NCBI GenBank assembly: GCA_020832375.1
Contig: JAFIEW010000001.1
Location: 55,267-119,266 of the forward strand
Source: Cyclobacteriaceae bacterium
Lineage (GTDB): Bacteria > Bacteroidota > Bacteroidia > Cytophagales > Cyclobacteriaceae
Reading direction: 5' to 3'
Length of the DNA: 64,000 nucleotides
Shown: one piece after another, positions 223 through 64,000 of the stretch
Position numbering within the stretch: the first letter of the stretch is position 1
How the letters are laid out: each line of letters begins with the position of its first letter
Program-made: the position numbers and the translations under genes
Notes under the pieces: generated by a model
Seen by the model: the letters and a program-made list of their open reading frames with translations, nothing else
Database searches by the model: none
What the model was told of the DNA's origin: nothing

Positions 223-428
223 AGCCATCATCATGCTCAGGCTTTAGAATTTCACTGAGCAGTATGTTTCTACCGCTAAAAGGGAAAACAGCAAAAATTA
301 GATTGCTTAGCGATCATTGTCCCTTAATAACAATTCAAAAAAATAAAGAAACGATTATTTCACCTATCTAATCGGAATATCCCTTCAAAACCACTAAATT
401 GACCTTTCAAAAGAAGGAAATACCCAAA

Positions 429-3400
429 ATGAAGATGAAGCGAATAAAGCTGAAGGCTGCACTAAACAGTGCATTTTTAAAGGTGAAGCCCAATCGAGTG
501 GCAATTGAGCAATTCAAAACTAACCTCATCCAGCTCTTAGATCGAAGCAATGAGCATGAGTCGGAAGAGTTTCATAAAAACTTAGTAAGCGACTTTCTTA
601 AAAAAACCTATTACGACCCCCAGCACTTTATCAACACAAAGGGACGCAATGATCTAGTCATTCACAATGGTAAGGAAGCGAAAAGCAGCGTAGGCGTAAT
701 TATTGAAGCTAAAAAGCCCACCAATAAGAGTGAAATGGTGAGCACGAACAAGCTGAACACCAAGGCTTTTCAAGAATTGATGCTATACTACCTACGAGAG
801 CGAATCTCACTTAAAAACCTTGAGGTAAAGCATTTGGTGATTACCAATATCTACGAATGGTATATTTTTGATGTGACTACCTTTGATCGGCTATTTGCTC
901 AAAACAAAACTTTGGTCAAGCAATTCGAAGATTTTGAAGCGGGACGACTAGCCGATACTAAAACCGACTTTTTTTATAAACAAATTGCCGAACCTTTCCT
1001 ATCAGCAATCACGCAAGAGGTGGATTTCGTCTATTTCAACTTGCTAGATTATGAAAAAGTCTTACGCAATGAAAACAAATCCGATGACAATCAACTGATC
1101 GCACTCTTCAAATTGCTCTCACCAGAGCATCTGCTCAAGCTTCCTTTTGCCAATGACAGTAATAGCCTCGACAAGCGATTTTATAATGAGTTGCTTCATA
1201 TTATCGGACTAGCGGAGACGAAGGAGGGTAGCAAAAAGCTCATTGGCCGAAAGAAAGCCGGAGAGCGCAATAGCGGAAGCATACTGGAAGATGCGATCAT
1301 ACAGCTCGACAGCATGGACAAGCTCAGCCGTCTTGACCGACCTGAGCAATATGGCAACTCGAGGGAAGAACGGCTTTTTCAGGTAGCACTAGAGCTGAGC
1401 ATTACCTGGATCAACCGTATCTTATTTTTGAAGCTCCTAGAGGCGCAACTCATCACCTACCACGGCGGGAGCAAGGAATATGCCTTTTTGAATCTCGACA
1501 CCCTCAAAAACTATGACGACCTCAACAGTCTGTTTTTTCAGGTGTTGGCACGAAAATACGAAGACCGCAATGAGGATGTGAAGCAACTATTCGAAAAAGT
1601 ACCTTATTTAAACTCTTCTCTTTTTGAACCTACTGACCTGGAGCATACCACGCTCTCCATTAGTAACCTGAAAGACGATAAGGAAATACCACTTCTAGCG
1701 AGTACGGTACTGAAAGATGAGCAAGGTAAAAAACGGACAGGATCACTACCCACCTTGGCTTATCTTTTTGCTTTTTTGAATGCCTACGACTTTAGTAGCG
1801 AGGGATCGGAAGCCATACAAGAGGAAAACAAAACCCTGATCAATGCCTCAGTTTTAGGCTTGATTTTCGAAAAGATCAATGGCTATAAAGACGGCTCTTT
1901 TTTCACGCCCGGCTTCATTACCATGTATATGTGTCGGGAGACCATTCGCAAAGCCGTGGTGCAGAAGTTCAACGAAAGCAAAGGCTGGGAATGTAAGGAA
2001 TTTGATGAGCTTTACGACAAGATTGAAGACCGCAATGAGGCCAATGCTATCGTCAATAGCCTCAAAATCTGTGACCCTGCCGTAGGCTCGGGACACTTTT
2101 TGGTGTCGGCACTCAATGAGATGATCGCTATCAAGCACGAATTGAGAATTTTGCAAGATCGCCAAGGCAAGCGTCTAAAAGAGTATGCCGTAGAAGTGGT
2201 CAATGATGAATTGATCGTGACAGATGAGGAAGGTGAGCTTTTTGAATACCACCCCAACAGCAAAGAGAGCCAACGGGTACAGGAGGCTTTTTTTCATGAG
2301 AAGCAAAGCATTATTGAAAACTGCCTCTTTGGTGTGGACATCAATCCCAATTCGGTGAAGATCTGCCGATTGCGATTGTGGATTGAGCTCTTGAAAAATG
2401 CCTACTATAAAAATGCTACCGAGCTAGAAACCCTCCCCAATATCGACATCAACATCAAGTGTGGCAATTCATTGGTTAGCAGGTTTGGCATTGATGCAGA
2501 CTTGAAGAAAGCACTAAAAAGCAACAAACATCATTGGACTATTGACAGCTACCGACAGGCGGTATCCACCTATCGTAATGCTCAAAGCAAGGAGGAGAAA
2601 CGCGAAATGCAGCGGTGGATCGAAAACATCAAATCAGACTTTCGCTCAGAAATCGCAAAAAACGACCCTAAGATCAAGCGAAAAGCACTATTGGGTGGTG
2701 AGTTGTATAACCTGACCATGCAGCAGGGTCTATTTGAAGAAAGTGCAAAGCAAAAAAAGCAAAGAGAGGCTAAAATCGCGAAGATTGAAGCATCATTGGA
2801 AAAGCTCGATCATGAGATCGAAGACATTAAGTCTAACAAAATTTTTGAAAATGCCTTTGAATGGAGATTTGAATTCCCCGAAGTACTCAATGACGAGGGT
2901 GATTTTGTGGGATTTGATGTAGTGATTGGTAACCCGCCTTATATCAGGCAGGAGGAGTTTTCTGATTTGAAACCATATTTAAAATCACGATTTAAAGTCT
3001 ATAATTCCATTTCTGACTTGCTCACTTATTTTGTGGAATTAAGTTTCGATATTTTATCTTCCTATGGAACATTTCAATATATAATATCTAATAAATTTAC
3101 ACGCACAAATTATGGGAAAGTGTTGCGAAAGTTTCTATTAGAAAACACGAATCTTACTCATTTTTTAGACTTTAGTGGTATTCCTGTTTTTGATGAGGCA
3201 ACTGTTGATGCCGCAATTATAGGATTTCAAAAGGCAAAAACAGTAAAATCCAATCTTTTATACGCTAACATTATTAAAGAAAATTTATCTATTCAGAATT
3301 TTAACGAATTTTTAGAAGCCAACGCTATTAACATAAAACAGACAGTTTTATCTGAAAATATATGGCAAATAAATAATCAGCAAAGTGAAGAAATAAAATT

Positions 3401-4256
3401 AAAAGTAGAATCCCAAGGAAAGAAACTTAAAAATTGTCATATATCTATTAATTATGGAATAAAAACAGGTCTTAACGAGGCTTTTGTAGTGAAAGGGGAA
3501 TTAAAGAGTAGAGTTTTTAGTGAGGAAAAAAACAGCATCCCTTTTTTAAAGCCTATTTTAAGAGGAAGAGATATACAAAAATGGTTACCGGATTACAATA
3601 ATCTATGGTTAATTAACATCCCAAAAGGTTACACAATAAAAACAAAGTTAAATATTATGGAGGTTAATGATTCTCCTCCGCGGTATGGTAATGTGGAATA
3701 TGATGAAGCCTATGAATGGTTTAAGAATAATCATCCAATTATAGCAAAGCACTTAGAGGGCTTCAAAGATAAAGCTGCAAAAAGAAAAGACAAGGGTGAT
3801 TTTTGGTGGGAGCAAAGAGCTTGTTCTTATTTAAATGATTTTGATACACCTAAAATAATTTATCCAAATATGACAAAATTCTTACCTTTTGTAATCGATC
3901 TAGATTCTCATTATTTCCACAATGATAAGTCATTCCATTTAATAACAAATAGAATTTTTTGGCATGGCTCATTCTTTAATTCAAAGCTTTTTAAATTTTG
4001 TTTTCAAAATAGCTTCCCAGAACTTCTTGGTGGAACAAAAGAATTGAGAAAAATATTTTTCGAACAAATTCCAGTTAAAGAAATATCAGAAGAGCAGGAA
4101 ATACCTTTCAAAAGATTAGTCAAACAAATCTTATCAATTAAAAAACAAAACCCTCAAGCGGACACCACAGACTTAGAAAACCAAATAGACCAGCTAGTAT
4201 ATGCGCTTTATGGCTTGACGGAGGAAGAGATTCGGATTGTGGAGGGGAGTGTTTAA
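429..4256 (+). CDS. Type IIG (Eco57I/PglX-like) single-chain restriction endonuclease + N6-adenine DNA methyltransferase
   Basis: ORF 399..4256 (TTG at 399, first ATG at 429). Motifs: PD-(D/E)xK-like signature D85...E103-A-K105 (NDLVIHNG...VIIEAKKP, nt 651-713); SAM motif I DPAVGSGHFL (from nt 2073); family-typical NIKCGNSL; catalytic motif IV VVIGNPPY (NPPY nt 2931-2942). It also has a long C-terminal putative target-recognition region and a conserved tail LVYALYGLTEEEI. Confidence 0.85.
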   Translation: MKMKRIKLKAALNSAFLKVKPNRVAIEQFKTNLIQLLDRSNEHESEEFHKNLVSDFLKKTYYDPQHFINTKGRNDLVIHNGKEAKSSVGVIIEAKKPTNKSEMVSTNKLNTKAFQELMLYYLRERISLKNLEVKHLVITNIYEWYIFDVTTFDRLFAQNKTLVKQFEDFEAGRLADTKTDFFYKQIAEPFLSAITQEVDFVYFNLLDYEKVLRNENKSDDNQLIALFKLLSPEHLLKLPFANDSNSLDKRFYNELLHIIGLAETKEGSKKLIGRKKAGERNSGSILEDAIIQLDSMDKLSRLDRPEQYGNSREERLFQVALELSITWINRILFLKLLEAQLITYHGGSKEYAFLNLDTLKNYDDLNSLFFQVLARKYEDRNEDVKQLFEKVPYLNSSLFEPTDLEHTTLSISNLKDDKEIPLLASTVLKDEQGKKRTGSLPTLAYLFAFLNAYDFSSEGSEAIQEENKTLINASVLGLIFEKINGYKDGSFFTPGFITMYMCRETIRKAVVQKFNESKGWECKEFDELYDKIEDRNEANAIVNSLKICDPAVGSGHFLVSALNEMIAIKHELRILQDRQGKRLKEYAVEVVNDELIVTDEEGELFEYHPNSKESQRVQEAFFHEKQSIIENCLFGVDINPNSVKICRLRLWIELLKNAYYKNATELETLPNIDINIKCGNSLVSRFGIDADLKKALKSNKHHWTIDSYRQAVSTYRNAQSKEEKREMQRWIENIKSDFRSEIAKNDPKIKRKALLGGELYNLTMQQGLFEESAKQKKQREAKIAKIEASLEKLDHEIEDIKSNKIFENAFEWRFEFPEVLNDEGDFVGFDVVIGNPPYIRQEEFSDLKPYLKSRFKVYNSISDLLTYFVELSFDILSSYGTFQYIISNKFTRTNYGKVLRKFLLENTNLTHFLDFSGIPVFDEATVDAAIIGFQKAKTVKSNLLYANIIKENLSIQNFNEFLEANAINIKQTVLSENIWQINNQQSEEIKLKVESQGKKLKNCHISINYGIKTGLNEAFVVKGELKSRVFSEEKNSIPFLKPILRGRDIQKWLPDYNNLWLINIPKGYTIKTKLNIMEVNDSPPRYGNVEYDEAYEWFKNNHPIIAKHLEGFKDKAAKRKDKGDFWWEQRACSYLNDFDTPKIIYPNMTKFLPFVIDLDSHYFHNDKSFHLITNRIFWHGSFFNSKLFKFCFQNSFPELLGGTKELRKIFFEQIPVKEISEEQEIPFKRLVKQILSIKKQNPQADTTDLENQIDQLVYALYGLTEEEIRIVEGSV

Positions 4257-4449: not shown

Positions 4450-5613
4450 ATGGAACAGCTAGAAGAGGTTAAGATCTCAGAACTTGAAAAAGAAATTACT
4501 CATGAAAGAGAAAGGCTATCGAGTGATAGAATGGATATATCATTTGGAGAGCTTATTAATCTATACAAGAGTAAAGAGCTTATCATCAGACCTGAATATC
4601 AGAGACTATATAGATGGAATGATAAACAAAAAACAGCTTTAATAGAGTCTATTCTATTAAATATCCCTATACCACCAATATTTGTAGCAGAAGATGAAGA
4701 TGGTATTTGGGAATTGGTTGATGGTTTACAGAGGGTAACAACCTTTATCAGCTTTTTTGGGGAGCTGTCGGAAGACTTAACGATTAGCTACGAAGAAAAT
4801 GAGGATGATAATGAATTAGATGCATCTTCAGATTTAAATGAAAAATATAAAAAGGAAGACGGTCTAGAACTATTGAATAAATGGACTTTAGAAGCGGGGA
4901 GTTTAATCAAAAGCCTTGAAGGACTCAATTTTGATACTTTGCCTAAAAAATACATTATAAATCTCAAAAGAGCTGTATGCAGAGTTGAAATCCTAAGAGG
5001 AGAAAGTAATACTGCCATGAAGTATGAACTTTTCAAAAGATTAAACTCAGGTGGTTCCAAACTTACCCCTCAAGAAATTAGAAACGCTATTTACAGAGGA
5101 ATAAACCCTGTTATAAATGAATTAATACTAGATCTTTCAAGAAATAAAACTTTTGTGAAGCTTACGACATTAAGTAAGCAAAAAAAACAAGAACTCTACG
5201 ATCAAGAGCTAATTTTACGCTTTGTGGCATTATTAAATAATGTAGATAATGTCAATAATAATCTTGAAAACTATCTTGATCATTTCATGGAGACTAAAGT
5301 ATCCTCGGAGGATTTTAATGAAAGTTTCTATAAATCATTGTTTAATGATGTTTATGAATTGCTGGAAGAGGTTGGTGACGATAAAATCTTCAGAAATGAC
5401 GGAAATTTATTTGTCCCAGCTTTATATGAGGGGATAACCATTGGTATCGCCCAAAATATTGAAAAATATCGTTCAAACCCGCATCTTATTTCATCTAAAA
5501 TAGCAGAGTTAAAACTAGATGAAGATTTCAAGCGATTTTCAGGATCAGCATCCAATAGTAGATCAAGAATAAAAAAACGATTGCAGCGAGCCAATGAAAT
5601 TTTTGCTTCATAA
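4450..5613 (+). CDS. DUF262 (ParB/Srx-fold, GmrS-like) domain protein without a DUF1524/His-Me nuclease domain
   Basis: 387-aa ORF. Shows the DUF262 signatures PEYQRLYRW (aa 48-56), VDGLQRVTT (DGLQR aa 91-95, nt 4720-4734) and LFKRLNSGGSKLTPQEIRNA. The C-terminal ~190 aa has no HNH/DUF1524-like histidine motif. Very AT-rich. Confidence 0.85.
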   Translation: MEQLEEVKISELEKEITHERERLSSDRMDISFGELINLYKSKELIIRPEYQRLYRWNDKQKTALIESILLNIPIPPIFVAEDEDGIWELVDGLQRVTTFISFFGELSEDLTISYEENEDDNELDASSDLNEKYKKEDGLELLNKWTLEAGSLIKSLEGLNFDTLPKKYIINLKRAVCRVEILRGESNTAMKYELFKRLNSGGSKLTPQEIRNAIYRGINPVINELILDLSRNKTFVKLTTLSKQKKQELYDQELILRFVALLNNVDNVNNNLENYLDHFMETKVSSEDFNESFYKSLFNDVYELLEEVGDDKIFRNDGNLFVPALYEGITIGIAQNIEKYRSNPHLISSKIAELKLDEDFKRFSGSASNSRSRIKKRLQRANEIFAS

Positions 5614-5630
5614 ATGTTGACTAGTTTGTT

Positions 5631-6299
5631 ATGGCTTTCATAGACGATATTGATTCCGATATAGAAGAAAGAACAACAGCTATTTTTGAGATTGAAAGAG
5701 TCCTTTTTTCAAACAGATTCAAATTTACATCTCTACAATTGGATATCTTTTCAGTTCAATCTGTAGCTATGATCTATTCTATTTGGGAAGGTTTCATACA
5801 AAAGGCATTTGTAAGATATGCTGAAGAACTAAATAAAAGGAAAATAAAGATAACCACAGCAAGTGACAACTTATTAATCTTTTATATGGAAACTAACTTT
5901 GCGCAACTTAAAAATTATCCAAATAAGCTAAATAAAAAAACAGCCTTCTTTAGTGACCTTCAATCATTTTATGTAAACAATGAATTAAATTTTAATTCAA
6001 GTATCAACACACAAAGCAATGTAAACTTTGAGGTGATGAACGGACTACTTCAATCATTTTGTCTAGAAAAATTTCCCGAAAATTGGAAAAATTATCGACG
6101 TCCAGACCCAAACTTGAAGGATTCATTAAAAACTTTTTTAAATTATAGGAATGCAGTAGCTCATGGCGGTGATATTAGCTCTGAGGAAAAAGTTACACAA
6201 GAGGTATTTGATAAATACAAAAAACTAGTTGATAGTTTGATGTATGAAATCATGTTTAAAATGGTAGAAGGTCTAAATAATCAGACTTACCTTAAGTGA
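5631..6299 (+). CDS. HEPN-superfamily protein (MAE_28990/RiboL-PSP-like), predicted RNase
   Basis: 222-aa ORF starting 17 nt after the DUF262 stop. Rx4H motif in LNYRNAVAHGGD (R173...H178, nt 6147-6164) near the C-terminus, as in HEPN ribonucleases. Composition looks helix-prone. Subfamily assignment is from memory. Confidence 0.7.
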   Translation: MAFIDDIDSDIEERTTAIFEIERVLFSNRFKFTSLQLDIFSVQSVAMIYSIWEGFIQKAFVRYAEELNKRKIKITTASDNLLIFYMETNFAQLKNYPNKLNKKTAFFSDLQSFYVNNELNFNSSINTQSNVNFEVMNGLLQSFCLEKFPENWKNYRRPDPNLKDSLKTFLNYRNAVAHGGDISSEEKVTQEVFDKYKKLVDSLMYEIMFKMVEGLNNQTYLK

Positions 6300-6321: not shown

Positions 6322-6618
6322 TTTCCAAAAGTTACCACCAAAACCAAAGCCATTTGTAAAAAAATAAAGGACATAGGTAATGATATTCCTTGGAGATTAT
6401 TTTGTTATCGAGTAAATGAAACCATTGTCGTTCTTTTCAATGGTGGTATTAAGCAAACGCAGGCTACACAAGACAGCGAAAGTCAAAGCCTAAAGTTTCA
6501 CGAAGCGCCAACATTTGCCAAAAAGATGGAAGAAGCTTTACAATCCGAAATGATTGAAATATCTGATGATCAGAGGTATTTAAAAAGCTTTGACGGATCA
6601 ACAAACCTAATATTTTAG
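6322..6618 (+). pseudogene. 5'-truncated HigB/Gp49-like (RelE superfamily) toxin remnant
   Basis: Frame 1 is open from 6322 to TAG at 6616-6618, with no ATG/GTG/TTG near its 5' end (first ATG gives only ~26 aa). The translation ...DIPWRLFCYRVNETIVVLFNGGIKQTQATQD... resembles the C-terminal core of phage Gp49/HigB-type toxins (YRI.Y....VVLL.GF.KKTQKTP). The stop lies 4 nt before the HTH gene. Confidence 0.5.
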
Positions 6619-6622
6619 ACCC

Positions 6623-6892
6623 ATGCGAAGTAAAACCGTAGATCGATTACTTAAAAGTACTCCTCATGACGTAAAAATTTTTGTGGATTGGTATGCAGGC
6701 CTAGTGGTTCGCATCAATGAGCTTTTGCGAGAACACGAGATGAACAAAAAGAAACTAGACAAAAAACCATCTGAAATTTTCAAATGGTTTAATGGTGAGC
6801 ATAATTTCACCTTGCAGTCTTTGGCAAAATTATCAGCTGAATTAGGAGAGCCGTTACTAGAAGTCCCGAAAAAAAGTGAAAGATTATATTGA
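6623..6892 (+). CDS. XRE-family helix-turn-helix protein, HigA-like antitoxin
   Basis: 89 aa. KKPSEIFKWFNGEHNFTLQSLAKLSAELGEPL matches the recognition helix and C-terminal part of Bacteroidota HTH antitoxins (PSEISKWLSG.HNFTL.TLAKLE..LG). Its position directly after the toxin remnant fits a toxin-antitoxin operon. Confidence 0.6.
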   Translation: MRSKTVDRLLKSTPHDVKIFVDWYAGLVVRINELLREHEMNKKKLDKKPSEIFKWFNGEHNFTLQSLAKLSAELGEPLLEVPKKSERLY

Positions 6893-7084
6893 TACAGTAG
6901 GTGATTTTAAAATGTCATCCTTTCAAAATAAATCTTTGAGATTCCCACCAAGAAAGCTAAGTAGTGCTAGCTATTTCCTTGAAAGCTTTTAAAGTGGTGT
7001 CGAAATCACAAGCCTTATCAATCGAGAAAATAAATAATAAGAGCATGAGGTATTTTTCATGTTGTTACATAAAAGCCTTGTTTA

Positions 7085-7803
7085 ATGGATTTGACGCAGG
7101 AAAATGAACCCCTTAGAAAATTGTTTTTAGCAGTCTATTTCAATGATGTAAATCAGGTGATGGATTTTAAGCGGCAATACCCTCATTTATATGCTAAAAA
7201 ACATCAGGTTCAAGTAGACCCTGCCTGTCCACCCTTTCATATTAGTGCCATCACTTATTTTCATAAAGTGATTCTATTCAATGGCACATAGGAGGAGAAA
7301 CGAATGCCATTGATTAACCGCAATAAAGGTAGAACAATGCAAATGGAGGATTTCTGGAAAACAGCATTAGGGGTAGACGAAATCAAACCTGACCTACGCT
7401 ACAATCGTATTTTTCTTGTGATGATCCCAATGATCCAGAGATAGCTGATATGGTTATTTGTAATACTTTCAGTTACTTTTTAGAAAAGGGATTTCGTGAA
7501 GTTGACCTGCGCCTTTACAAGCGTGTGGATTGCTTCGATTTTGAAGCGGTTGAGCAACTGCTTCAGCAAGGTGGACAGTCAGCTGTTGATTTTTATGGAG
7601 ACAACGACAGCAATGTAATAGCGCGCAATTATACCGCATTATCATATTATCTTTCTACTCGTTACATTCCTGATTTAGAAATTTTTGAAAGAAAAGGCTA
7701 CGATCGAAAGTTTAATATCCGCTTTATGTTTGAAGGTATTCTTGGCTTAGCTGCCAATGTGGAGATGTATTTTTTACTTAAGAAATATGGTCAAGCATGG
7801 TGA
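7085..7803 (+). pseudogene. Unknown gene fragmented over three reading frames
   Basis: Three same-strand pieces: ORF 7085..7291, a frame open ~7292-7443 (EEKRMPLINRNKGRTMQMEDFWK...), and ORF 7450..7803. The third frame is already open from 7393 (..YFSCDDPNDPEIADMVICNTF..). The consecutive and overlapping layout suggests two frameshifts. No family recognised. Confidence 0.35.
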
Positions 7804-8210
7804 GTGATACATGGCTATTATTGGCCACAATTCATCCATTGACTTCATCAACTAAGCCCATGCCTTATTTTCAATCACCAACCTTAAAAAACTGTCCCCT
7901 TTTAAAACAAAGCCCTCACAAACAAAAGATTAAAATTCATTAAATAACTCCCAAGAACCATGCTGATCTTACTAATATCACATGACTTCAAGAAAACCGA
8001 CTAAAAATAAATAAAACAAACGAAACGGATTTTCATCTTAAAAACAAAAGCTTTAGCAAGCATCTTTCACCTAACATCTTGAGGTAGCCTGACAAATATC
8101 ACCTTTTATTCTCGCCAAAAATGTTGTACATTACAAAAAGGCAAGGTTTTATCACAGATAAATGACAGAGCCTTAAAATCCTTTGACCATCCTTAATATC
8201 AAAAACGATC

Positions 8211-9314
8211 ATGATGAAGTGGTTATATCAACAAGTTCTGAAACGCTTTTTATTTCTTCTCAATCCTGAGTTGGTCCATAGCCTATTCGTTGGAATAGGT
8301 TCATTTTTTGGCAAAACAAAGGTTGGTAGAGGCTTGGTGAGTCAATTTTACCGGTACAAGGGCAAGCCGATACAACTCAAAGTAGATGGTATCACCTATA
8401 CTTCACCAGTGATGCTTGCTGCAGGCTTCGATTACAATGGTAAATTAGCTGGTGTACTCGATACGGTTAGTTTTGGTGGGGATGAAATTGGATCGGTAAC
8501 AGCAAGGCCAACCAAGGGGAATCCAAAGCCTCGATTGAGAAGAATGATAAAGTCCCAGTCACTGATTGTCTACAAAGGACTGAAAAACGATGGCGTGGAG
8601 GTAATCATCGAACGCCTAAAAAAGACCAAAAAACCCAAAAACTTTATCTGGGGTATTAGTATTGCTAAAACCAATGACGATAAAACAGTGACTACAGAAG
8701 CGGGAATTGAAGATTATTGTTATTCCTTCCGTAGGTTAAATGAAGAAGGGATGGGTAATTTTTACACCATCAATATCAGTTGTCCTAACGTGCACGGAGG
8801 GGAGAGTTTTACCACACCGGCATTATTGAAACCACTACTAGTAGCGCTCGATAAAATACCTTGTGAAAAACCTGTTTATCTTAAAATGCCGATCAACTTA
8901 GTATGGGAAGACTTTCAAGAACTGCTAGTAATAGCCGATCAACATCGAGTGAGTGGTGTGGTAATTGGCAATCTCAATAAAAATTATGATGAGGCTACCT
9001 ATATAGATGAGGCTCCAAAAAACTACAGGGGGGGACTCAGTGGATTGACCTGCCAAAAACGATCAACGGACATCATTAGAAAAACCAAAGCGGCATGGGG
9101 CAATCGATTTACCATCATCGGATGCGGTGGTATCTTATCAGTAGAAGATGCGATGGACAAGCTAGATGCTGGTGCCGATATCTTGCAATTGATTACGGGT
9201 ATGATCTTCGAAGGCCCTCATCTAATGAAATCAATCTGTGAAGCTTATGCTCAGAGAATGGAAGATAGAGAAAATAACACTCAACAAGCACTACCAGAAG
9301 CTCAATTAAGCTAG
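8211..9314 (+). CDS. pyrD: Dihydroorotate dehydrogenase (quinone), class 2
   Basis: 367 aa. N-terminal membrane-association helix region (LKRFLFLLNPELVHSL), NISCPN active-site motif, and C-terminal GCGGI...GA..LQL flavin-binding signature. Confidence 0.9.
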   Translation: MMKWLYQQVLKRFLFLLNPELVHSLFVGIGSFFGKTKVGRGLVSQFYRYKGKPIQLKVDGITYTSPVMLAAGFDYNGKLAGVLDTVSFGGDEIGSVTARPTKGNPKPRLRRMIKSQSLIVYKGLKNDGVEVIIERLKKTKKPKNFIWGISIAKTNDDKTVTTEAGIEDYCYSFRRLNEEGMGNFYTINISCPNVHGGESFTTPALLKPLLVALDKIPCEKPVYLKMPINLVWEDFQELLVIADQHRVSGVVIGNLNKNYDEATYIDEAPKNYRGGLSGLTCQKRSTDIIRKTKAAWGNRFTIIGCGGILSVEDAMDKLDAGADILQLITGMIFEGPHLMKSICEAYAQRMEDRENNTQQALPEAQLS

Positions 9315-61886: not shown

Positions 61887-62611
61887 AGGCTTTATGGTTA
61901 GTTCTTTATAGGACTCGATTATTCAAGCCAAAATCAAATATACTATTATATGATATAAAAGGGTCCATTTTAAGTAGAAAGCATAAGTAGAAAACTAGCG
62001 AAAAAGTAAAAACAGGCTCTTCATTTCTAAATGCTTTAATCAATGAATAAAAAAAGACTGTTTTTTAAATGTAAATCGATTTGAAAAACAGGATGGTGAA
62101 TATAGCGTCAAAGGAACAAAAATTTTTAAGGTGGAGTGAGGGTATTAAAAAAACACAAACCAATTATCATATCTATAAACTTTAGAGTTAATGAAGGGGC
62201 TTCATACTTGAAATAAACTTATAAATAAATAGAACTTAGACCAAATTGATACACACTTACTCGTCTTGCTGCCTCGGAGTTTTATAATATATATTTCGAA
62301 CCATATCGCACGGAAGATTAATCCAATCCAAAAATTTCAATCTGAGCCCATGAATTGGGACACAATAAAGAGATTTTGTTTAGGCAAACATTAACAAAAT
62401 TTTCTTGAGTCTAAGTAATGATCTCTCCTGAGTACAGTACAAATACTCATTTTGATGAAAAATACAGTGCTTTTCGTTGTATCAATCAAAATATACGTTA
62501 CATTAGTGTGAGAAAATCAAACAAAAGTGTTTGTTTCTTAGATAATTTGAAACTACTTTTGTTTAATAGGAGTTAAACAAAATAGAAAGACACCATAAAA
62601 TATATAAAGCC

Positions 62612-63115
62612 ATGACTGCATTAGAATTTAGTTACAACCTCGACAAAATGACAAAGTCACTAAAACCTTTCGCTCTTAGATTGACAAAGGACATGGAAGA
62701 TGCTAACGACTTACTACAGGAAACGGTAGTGAAGGCGTTTTCTAACAGAGAAAAATTCTCTGAGGGCACCAACCTAAAAGCTTGGCTTTATACAATCATG
62801 AAGAATACCTTTATTACCAACTACCAAAGAATGGTAAGAAGAAATACCTTCATTGATAGCACTGAAAATCTACATTATATAAATTCATCTGATAACACTA
62901 TTCAGAATGGTGCTTACATGGATTTTGCAATGAAAGATATCCATGAAGCTATTGATAAGTTAGATGATATATATAAAGTACCTTTCAATATGCATTTCAC
63001 TGGTTATAAATATCATGAGATTGCTGATCACCTTGAAATCCCGATTGGTACAGTAAAAAATAGAATTCATATTGCTAGAAAAGAGTTAAAGTCTAAACTA
63101 ACGCAGTATGCATAA
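62612..63115 (+). CDS. ECF-type RNA polymerase sigma-70 family factor
   Basis: 167 aa. Region 2 ([14 protein letters not shown]......[19 protein letters not shown]). Region 4 HTH ([26 protein letters not shown]). Confidence 0.9.
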
Positions 63116-63152
63116 AGAATATTTGTTGATTGATGGTTAAATGGTTGTAAAG

Positions 63153-63187
63153 GCGCAAATCATTAGATTTGCGCTTTTATTTTTTTG
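63153..63187 (+). terminator. Rho-independent terminator after the sigma factor gene
   Basis: GCGCAAATC-ATTA-GATTTGCGC (9-bp stem, 63153-63174) followed by TTTTATTTTTTT. Confidence 0.85.
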
Positions 63188-63685
63188 AAGTCTACCAAAT
63201 TTGTTTATTCAATCAATACAGCTCTTTAGGGCATGTTTAAAAACAGATAAATCGTTGATAAACAAATCATAAAGTTTATACTTTATTTATTTGAGTGCAC
63301 GGTTTTTAATCAAAAATCAGTGCAAATGCTTGCGACGAAAATGTCTTAGATCAACATTTTATAGCTTAGTACCAGGCGTTATGGTGAATCGTAAGTTGTA
63401 CTTGAAAAAATTTAAAAGCTTAAGATAAGCTTCTTGAAGTTTATCATTTTTTCCATCAAATAAGACAAGAGAAGCTTGTGCCGCTTCGAATCTGCAGAAC
63501 CTGGGCCTTTTAAGCAAGCCCATTTTAATATTCAAAAAAATCATCAGATAAGGAGATACTTCGACTAGCTGCTTGCATTAAAAGTTTCTACCATTCAGTG
63601 TAAAAATGATGCTATAAGGCTTAACCTTATATGTATTCATCTGTCTTGAAACTAAAAACAAGTGATATTTATCCCGGCTTATGCG

Positions 63686-63838
63686 TTAGGATTCGTAATG
63701 AGAGTACAAAATGCAATAAAATCAAGTATTTAGCTGAGGCATAGCTCCGCTCTGGTGATGGCGATATATACAGCGAAGCGATTGATTTTGAAGCAGTATG
63801 CGCTCGAAATGTAATTGCTAATGCATATTCTGGGTTTA
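63686..63838 (+). repeat. Copy 2 of the ~155-nt non-coding paralogous element
   Basis: Aligns with 43542-43698 (see copy 1). The 67-aa minus-strand ORF 63669..63872 that overlaps it is not conserved in copy 1. Confidence 0.8.
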
Positions 63839-63922
63839 TCAAAGGAAAGCTTTTAAATGTCAAAAAAGACATCTAAAACAACAATATTTTTCGATTTTGT
63901 AGGTGAATGAATAGAGAAACTG

Positions 63923-63950
63923 AAAAAAGGGATCGTTTCCAATCCCTTTT
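63923..63950 (-). terminator. Terminator of a minus-strand gene that enters the window at its right edge
   Basis: AAAAGGGAT-N8-ATCCCTTTT hairpin (63925-63950). On the minus strand it is followed by a T-run (plus-strand A-run 63923-63928). Confidence 0.6.
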
Positions 63951-64000
63951 CATTTTATAGGCTCATACTTTTTCACTAACTCATTAACTATTAGGGCACT
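63950..64000 (-). CDS. 3' end (16 codons + stop) of an unidentified minus-strand gene, partial
   Basis: Minus-strand frame reads SALIVNELVKKYEPIK then TGA (plus 63950-63952), immediately followed by the terminator hairpin. Too short to identify. Confidence 0.3.
   Translation of the reverse strand, partial: SALIVNELVKKYEPIK

Follow-up and report, generated by a model that had tools for sequence, protein, structure and literature searches.

An AT-rich block in a Type IIG restriction-modification gene of a Cyclobacteriaceae bacterium, very probably the exchangeable specificity cassette of its family

The window analysed here is a stretch of 64,000 nucleotides (nt) from a Cyclobacteriaceae bacterium (assembly GCA_020832375.1, contig JAFIEW010000001.1, positions 55,267 to 119,266), and it carries near its start a single-chain Type IIG restriction-modification gene. 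The gene occupies 429..4256 on the + strand and encodes 1275 amino acids (aa) from the ATG at 429; the database gene call also gives 1275 aa. The corresponding mechanical open reading frame (ORF) begins with a TTG at 399 (399-4256, +), and residues are counted below from the ATG unless TTG numbering is indicated. A preliminary description of the window had noted an abrupt fall in G+C content inside this gene, just past the codons of an NPPY motif, and a recovery close to the stop codon, which it attributed to a foreign target-recognition module recombined between conserved flanks. The block so delimited, 2958..4150 (+, aa 844-1240), was delineated here as an AT-rich exchangeable specificity cassette from compositional change-points, G+C at third codon positions (GC3), and an identity to homologues that is bimodal and uncoupled from that of the scaffold, the part of the gene that precedes it.

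The protein matches the PADLOC profile REase_MTase_IIG (PDLC03612) with 981 bits and from end to end, residues 1-1273 aligning with positions 1-1245 of 1247. Pfam matches are DUF7149 (339 bits, aa 17-253, TTG numbering), DUF7814 (334 bits) and Eco57I (129 bits), the last extending to aa 931 (TTG numbering); a match to TaqI_C is weak and lies under the cut-off (23.2 vs 26.5 bits, aa 1052-1226, TTG numbering). A putative PD-(D/E)xK nuclease motif, GRNDLVIH ... VGVIIEAKKP, was read from the sequence at 642..719 (+), with D75 ... E93-x-K95 (E93-A-K95) as its core. Its D, E and K are invariant across a 33-sequence alignment (D85/E103/K105 in TTG numbering), and the motif pattern suggests a catalytic role for them. 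Methyltransferase motif I, DPAVGSGHFL (S-adenosylmethionine binding, aa 549-558, 2073..2102, +), is likewise invariant across 33 aligned sequences, and motif IV, NPPY (aa 835-838, 2931-2942, +), encoded by AACCCGCCTTAT, is invariant among the aligned homologues. Motif I precedes motif IV, as in gamma-class N6-adenine methyltransferases.

A sequence search of solved structures aligned CamA with aa 829-1062 and M.BseCI with aa 828-1261, and also matched BrxX. An AlphaFold model of aa 480-1275 (mean predicted local distance difference test score 78.6) shows strand-helix repeats in the part that follows NPPY, and its fold matches rank in the order CamA (E 4.5e-26), M.BseCI, PglX, BpuSI, MmeI (E about 4e-12) and M.TaqI. 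The M.BseCI alignment over aa 828-1261, together with the predicted-fold match to CamA, M.BseCI and M.TaqI, places a C-terminal recognition domain in the same chain. Judged by these matches, the gene product belongs to the single-chain Type IIG enzymes, its methyltransferase and recognition unit being of the TaqI/CamA type. From the N-terminus the chain comprises a PD-(D/E)xK nuclease, a linker made of helices, an N6-adenine methyltransferase of the gamma class and a recognition domain resembling those of TaqI and CamA. The enzyme is probably active.

A maximum-likelihood change-point scan, run on all-position G+C and on GC3, placed the change-point at nt 2958 in both cases. This is 16 nt past the NPPY codons; the preliminary description had put the switch within about 30 nt after that motif. 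G+C is 0.428 before nt 2958 and 0.301 after it, and the corresponding values of GC3 are 0.508 and 0.247. The log-likelihood ratio (LLR) of the step is 41.6, against a maximum of 9.5 among 300 codon shuffles, with a 2-LLR support interval of 2724-2979 for GC3 and 2826-2990 for all positions. A second change-point within 2951-4256 lies at nt 4151, where G+C rises from 0.288 to 0.472, close to the reversion near 4150 described earlier; a rise of this size is equalled in 0.7% of shuffles, and the rebound over the last ~105 nt of the gene is based on only about 35 codons. The same scan applied to 11 other long ORFs of the window gave LLR values of 3.6 or less, nothing comparable. Low G+C starts again past the stop codon and extends to about nt 6400-8360. 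The hand counts behind the original observation were all reproduced: 0.433 at 1381-1440 and 0.50 at 2041-2100 in the 5' part, 0.217 at both 3241-3300 and 3901-3960 in the block, 0.482 at 4201-4256 in the tail and 0.267 at 4621-4680 downstream, with the NPPY codons at 2931-2942.

The step lies at synonymous sites. G/C-ending codons become much rarer after 2958 (Leu 0.61 to 0.14, Thr 0.74 to 0.06, Ile 0.49 to 0.08), and codon choice is shifted within nearly every amino acid between the 5' part and the cassette. The cassette has a GC3 of 0.227, where its amino acids would give 0.50 with the codon choice of the 5' part or 0.38 with that of the host. G+C at second codon positions (GC2) is constant (0.283 vs 0.278), and G+C at first positions (GC1) drops from 0.49 to 0.36. 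G+C, GC3 and codon choice thus all step at the cassette, and the uniform composition that the preliminary description had named as contrary to its proposal was not seen. Relative to the other genes of the window (GC3 0.388 +/- 0.048), the cassette is 3.3 standard deviations (SD) below. The 5' scaffold is not host-like either: its GC3 of 0.508 lies 2.5 SD above the same genes.

The step recurs throughout the family. In a sample of 70 full-length homologous genes from species-representative genomes, G+C is lower past NPPY in 67, with mean changes of -0.069 in G+C and -0.163 in GC3; in 17 genes the drop is 0.10 or more. With NPPY as the common reference point, GC3 averages 0.43-0.48 across most of the scaffold, falls to 0.30 in the first bin past NPPY, stays at 0.23-0.29 within the cassette and recovers to 0.37-0.39 over the final 30 codons. 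The GC3 step of the window gene, -0.27, falls in the upper ~15% of the family and is not an outlier. Genomes of cultured isolates, among them Arundinibacter roseus, Salinimicrobium catena and Cyclobacterium xiamenense, show the step as well, which rules out an assembly artefact as its general cause.

Comparison of homologues revealed that similarity in the scaffold is uncoupled from similarity in the cassette. More than 8000 database proteins match the Type IIG protein, the best non-self match being 75% identical; the analysis covered the best 80 of 582 confirmed genome loci, and 184 full-length family members were compared all against all. Over aa 1-850 every homologue is 0.7-0.85 identical to the query, and in the tail identity is about 0.67. 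Within segments of aa 851-1240 it is bimodal, and the segments vary independently, so that the collapse of identity between conserved flanks anticipated by the preliminary description does appear, in some homologues and not in others. Scaffold and cassette identities are uncorrelated across the 184 full-length homologues (Spearman -0.13, Mantel r -0.05), and the nearest neighbour by scaffold is also the nearest by cassette in only 20 of 170 genes. Among the 69 genes whose nearest scaffold relative is more than 90% identical, 52 have a cassette identity below 50%, and there are pairs with 85-98% identical scaffolds and unrelated cassettes. Between the cultured carriers Belliella pelovolcani DSM 46698 (L041) and Belliella filtrata DSM 111904 (L072), identity is 0.90 in the scaffold and 0.33 in the cassette. 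Clustering at 50% identity yields 26 cassette clusters and one scaffold cluster. The family spreads over Bacteroidota, Gammaproteobacteria and Cyanobacteria, with at least 26 cassette clusters.

The junctions were resolved at the DNA level in seven swap pairs. In two syntenic Moraxellaceae loci, L007 and L038, both from metagenome-assembled genomes, the DNA is about 98-100% identical through the upstream flank and the scaffold to ~10 nt past the GNPPY codons, falls to about 40% over about 1175 nt of cassette, and returns to about 100% identity ~85 nt before the stop codon and on through the downstream flank. The pair is a clean natural case of allelic cassette replacement. Over all seven pairs, the left breakpoint lies at the window equivalent of nt 2937-2967 in six, and the right breakpoint at 4094-4214. 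These ranges bracket the G+C change-points 2958 and 4151 and adjoin two nucleotide-conserved stretches, 2829-2948 and 4179-4253. The converse arrangement occurs in the pair L072/L073, where cassette DNA is 85% identical and scaffold DNA 69%, with third-position identity at identical residues of 0.72 in the cassette vs 0.47 in the scaffold.

The conserved stretches that adjoin the cassette fit homologous recombination anchored there. The candidate left anchor, FEWRFEFPEV...GFDVVIGNPPY (2829..2948, +), was delineated by nucleotide conservation and by the breakpoints of the natural swap pairs; its 30-nt windows rank with the best conserved of the whole gene at the nucleotide level (0.74-0.83 over 72 homologues), and conservation is 0.43 from nt 2949. 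The candidate right anchor (4151..4256, +) is the conserved tail ...TDLENQIDQLVYALYGLTEEEIRIVEGSV with the last two helices and the stop codon, marked by the return of G+C to 0.47, by conservation and by breakpoints. Its helices are residues 768-781 and 786-792 of the AlphaFold model, and the right G+C border lies just ahead of them. Conservation in the tail is about 0.67 at the protein level and 0.65-0.69 at the nucleotide level (4179-4253), vs 0.38-0.45 within the cassette.

Four sub-blocks can be distinguished inside the cassette. Sub-block A (aa 841-940, 2949..3248, +) is predicted from the Eco57I model, the CamA alignment and the structural model to form the second half of the methyltransferase Rossmann fold, past motif IV, and its identity to homologues is bimodal, about 0.75 or 0.4. 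Sub-block B (aa 941-1060, 3249..3608, +), delimited by identity bins, is the hypervariable start of the recognition domain. Its best identity in any of 183 homologues is 0.45-0.65 for most 20-aa bins; the bins 1001-1020 and 1041-1060 reach 0.85, and a conserved INYGIKTGLNEAFV island lies at 3447-3488. Sub-block C (aa 1061-1140, 3609..3848, +) is a mainly helical insert, by homologue comparison and the helices of the model, found in some homologues and absent or different in others. Sub-block D (aa 1141-1240, 3849..4148, +), which the weak TaqI_C match suggests to be the C-terminal part of a TaqI_C-like recognition domain, has a bimodal identity of about 0.7 or 0.2. A, C and D assort independently among homologues: P0025 and P0034 have C in common and differ in A and D, and P0005-P0012 agree in A and D and differ in C. 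Pieces smaller than the whole cassette are therefore exchanged as well.

The CamA alignment indicates that the catalytic fold continues for about 120 residues past NPPY, and the left G+C border therefore lies inside the methyltransferase domain, just past motif IV, and not at a domain boundary. The preliminary description had taken the block for the recognition module as such; its left end does not coincide with the boundary between methyltransferase and recognition domain, and the unit is larger than a recognition domain.

Taken together, these results argue strongly that the block 2958-4150 is the exchangeable specificity cassette of this family, and that the step in composition is a property of cassettes family-wide rather than a recent local scar. 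The cassette unit would comprise the half of the methyltransferase fold that follows NPPY together with the recognition domain, and such units would have been reassorted between scaffolds across the family. The likely route is homologous recombination within the FEWRFEFPEV...GNPPY anchor (2829-2948) and the two-helix C-terminal tail (4151-4253), by which a single conserved scaffold could acquire many recognition specificities. The G+C step marks the borders of a cassette that is AT-rich relative to both scaffold and host. A change of cassette is expected to alter the recognised sequence. The cassette of the window gene itself presumably arrived by such an exchange, and not recently; the step is not evidence of an event in this particular gene.

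Several points weigh against this interpretation. The closest relative of the window gene in the collections searched is 75% identical and its synonymous sites are saturated, and no exchange can be demonstrated or dated for the window gene. The breakpoint positions are the single line of evidence that points to a recombination mechanism. Exact-match runs between the anchors and those of sampled relatives are short (median 10-12 nt, maximum 27), so that exchange would need partners closer than those sampled. The window contig, moreover, derives from a metagenome-assembled genome.

Why cassettes should be AT-rich is a question on which two readings remain: a pool of mobile DNA with an AT bias of its own, or a region-specific fixation bias. 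The second, for which we would tentatively allow an appreciable minority chance, complements exchange and does not replace it. Divergent cassette alleles, unable to recombine internally, would drift towards the AT-rich mutational equilibrium, and in the scaffold, which recombines often, GC-biased gene conversion or selection that acts more effectively would keep GC3 higher. Both parts belong to one ORF and one transcript, and expression-linked codon selection, which cannot differ between them, is therefore excluded. GC3 is independent of column conservation, at 0.405-0.444 in the scaffold and 0.239-0.271 in the cassette across conservation classes, and the difference therefore belongs to the block and not to individual sites. 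Cassette GC3 is below that of neighbour genes in 54 of 57 loci (mean -0.118), in the AT-richest hosts too (0.194 vs 0.253), and scaffold GC3 is above that of neighbours in 38 of the 57 (+0.045). In regressions on host GC3 the fixed point lies at about 0.21 for cassettes and about 0.50 for scaffolds. The cassette attractor is thus AT-richer than nearly all sampled hosts, which is not what a pool made up simply of DNA from those hosts would produce. Against a simple form of fixation bias, GC3 is not maximal beside the breakpoints (0.34-0.39 in the left anchor vs a scaffold mean of 0.43), and the host baseline consists of ORFs within 6 kb, among which possible island genes would inflate the figure for scaffold above host. 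A full-text literature search, in a limited library, found no report of depressed GC3 in recognition domains. The broader form of this idea, that AT-richness is intrinsic and general to cassettes as non-recombining divergent alleles decay to an AT-rich mutational equilibrium, and is not a foreign mark, seems to us a slightly longer shot. If true, such genes would offer, inside a single ORF, a natural control for bacterial GC fixation bias that is linked to recombination, and the GC3 step could locate the borders of specificity cassettes from a single sequence.

It is improbable that, in the fairly recent past, a resident gene received a foreign low-GC recognition module by recombination and kept the step as an unameliorated scar, which is what the preliminary description had in essence proposed. 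The sharp step does fall exactly where relatives exchange cassettes, and its GC3 change is among the larger ones of the family. Yet the same step is present in 67 of the 70 homologues, and the scaffold that would represent the resident gene is itself atypical for the host (GC3 0.508 vs 0.388). The closest relatives, P0002 (locus L081) and P0003 (locus L082), resemble the window gene to a like degree in both parts, with scaffold identities of 0.79 and 0.77 and cassette identities of 0.68 and 0.67. GC3 falls past NPPY in both, in L082 by a similar amount (0.489 to 0.261) and in L081 by less (0.336 to 0.239). Synonymous sites relative to L081 and L082 are equally saturated in scaffold and cassette, and an event in the window gene is therefore undatable. 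A protein search with the cassette alone found no near-identical donor, the best new match being 61% and the best overall still P0002 at about 68%. No close relative was found in a scan of genome contigs with a single protein, and an empty-site search via the neighbouring pyrD-like gene found no related genome with such a site, its best relative being a non-syntenic Crocinitomicaceae metagenome-assembled genome (81% identity). Of the earlier proposal, then, an exchangeable cassette between conserved anchors is supported and a recent foreign insertion at this locus is not. The description had also held that homologues from unrelated GC backgrounds, collinear in identity across the whole protein, would speak against it, and P0002 and P0003, which match scaffold and cassette alike, go part of the way.

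It is still less credible that the low-GC DNA from 2958 to about 7200 is one acquired island, the 3' third of the gene having come with the two genes that follow it. These are a DUF262/GmrSD_N gene (4450-5613, +; PADLOC NsnA 212 bits, PD-T4-2_A 163 bits) and a HEPN gene (RiboL-PSP / MAE_28990; 5631-6299, +; no PADLOC match). G+C is indeed about 0.30-0.32 through 4450-6299, the right-hand change-point lies within 6409-8360, and the GC3 of the two genes, about 0.255 vs 0.388 for the host, is cassette-like and bears out the earlier remark that they too are low in G+C. However, the conserved tail (4151-4256) rebounds to 0.47 and breaks the block, DUF262, HEPN and helix-turn-helix (HTH) neighbours occur in 0 of 82 other fetched loci with a Type IIG homologue, though the genes there show the step, and the step coincides with cassette breakpoints at loci whose downstream genes differ. 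The least plausible account, which puts the low G+C down to amino-acid content or to relaxed protein constraint in a recognition domain that evolves fast, would fit a cassette rich in Lys, Asn, Ile and Phe and the fall in GC1, but as a sufficient explanation it is ruled out by the shift of codon choice within amino acids and by GC3 across conservation classes, since third positions change most (0.508 to 0.227) with GC2 constant, the GC3 expected from composition is 0.38-0.50, and conserved and variable columns are equal in GC3 within each part.

The exchangeable cassette favoured here has counterparts in known systems. Natural substitution of recognition regions in Type IIG genes of closely related genomes was described by Furuta et al. 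2010 (PMC2853133), whose alleles have the same Type IIG gene with a C-terminal recognition region substituted between conserved flanks, like L007/L038 and the six other pairs found here. That study concerned within-species alleles in six cases; in the present family, exchange extends across Bacteroidota, Gammaproteobacteria and Cyanobacteria and bears a consistent compositional signature. Near-identical scaffolds and flanks with unrelated recognition regions are seen for the family (7 DNA pairs, 52 of 69 protein cases), the closest relative of the window gene itself in the collections searched being 75% identical. Natural cassette exchange in Type IIG genes is thus already known, and the possible novelty lies in a synonymous AT-richness that is sharply bounded and found family-wide.

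PMC2853133 cites, as ref. 73, experimental reassortment of recognition domains in AloI, PpiI and TstI. The idea in common is that new specificities can be made by transferring a recognition module from one single-chain restriction-methylase scaffold to a related one. Jurenaite-Urbanaviciene and colleagues reportedly carried out this reassortment for the three enzymes in 2007. The recognition regions of AloI, PpiI and TstI are Type I HsdS-like and two-domain, whereas the window enzyme has a single TaqI_C/CamA-like domain, and its natural unit includes the methyltransferase half that follows NPPY.

The MmeI family (Type IIL; PMC2582602, PMC2731913, PMC2731914; structure PMC4833311, PDB 5HR4) also combines a nuclease, a gamma-class adenine methyltransferase and C-terminal recognition in one polypeptide, and PMC2731914 describes new specificities obtained by rational engineering. 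Specificity in this family is set by the C-terminal part, as is expected of the window enzyme. The engineering is said to have substituted individual contact residues and not to have exchanged cassettes. The preliminary description had named MmeI-type enzymes as known to be re-targeted by such exchange. One Pfam model of that name, PF20473 (MmeI_Mtase), matches the Type IIG protein (37.7 bits, aa 549-696), and the other MmeI-named Pfam models gave no match in it. A sequence search of solved structures returned no match to MmeI (5HR4), and the fold match to 5HR4 ranked 46 (E 4e-12, template modeling score about 0.35), behind CamA, M.BseCI, PglX and BpuSI, of which the first three are the nearest solved folds. 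The Type IIG enzyme would work like the MmeI family yet does not belong to it.

The best sequence and fold matches to aa 828-1261 are CamA, M.BseCI and M.TaqI (PDB 7LNI, 7QW5, 2ADM), which share the order NPPY, rest of the catalytic fold, recognition domain; unlike the window enzyme they are stand-alone methyltransferases with neither nuclease nor linker, and their identity to it is about 20%. Exchange in Type I HsdS and hsdS shufflons (PMC7394358, PMC7672463, PMC5399793) likewise places variable recognition domains between conserved recombination substrates and diversifies specificity by module exchange, but the window system has no separate S subunit, and exchange takes place between genomes and is not a switch within the cell. 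Searches of the gene and the cassette against the whole window with blastn and tblastn gave self-matches only, with no duplicated or silent cassette. A shufflon of the hsdS inverton type was ruled out, as the window has no silent cassette, inverted repeats or nearby recombinase.

For annotation, 2958-4150 can be labelled the specificity-determining cassette of the Type IIG enzyme. Residues 941-1000 and 1021-1040 of the recognition region are at most 45-65% identical to any of 183 full-length homologues; the window enzyme therefore probably recognises a sequence that none of the sampled relatives shares. A family with one scaffold, many cassettes and sharp natural junctions offers a ready framework for comparing and moving specificities. 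Its synonymous AT-richness, confined to the cassette, is a small regularity with possible consequences for how bacteria maintain their base composition.

Further variation was observed in the family. The homologues P0004, P0023, P0041 and P0079 (1438-1484 aa) carry an extra DUF559 domain (PF04480, very-short-patch-repair endonuclease-like) fused to the Type IIG scaffold, accompanied in three of the four by PF18741. In L055 (Vreelandella titanicae BH1) and L034 (Lewinellaceae), both from GC-rich hosts, G+C is 0.48-0.62 in the flanks, 0.36-0.52 in the scaffold and 0.31-0.40 in the cassette; over its full length the gene is far AT-richer than its surroundings, and the entire gene, not the cassette alone, behaves like mobile DNA.

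Downstream of the Type IIG gene, the DUF262 and HEPN genes are probably a separate anti-phage module, and their absence from the 82 other loci rules out a linkage to the Type IIG gene. An HTH_3 protein gene of 89 aa (6623-6892, +; PADLOC candidate family PDC-M64C, 86 bits) and an ORF of 117 aa (7450-7803, no family match) lie inside the low-GC stretch, ahead of a pyrD-like gene at 8211. The unlinked neighbours and the GC-rich tail argue against one low-GC block and favour a small defence island, which is flanked by a Na/Ca exchanger gene and the pyrD-like gene. A second low-GC stretch (0.31-0.33) at 62001-64000, with an ECF-type sigma-70 factor gene (62612-63115), looks ordinary.

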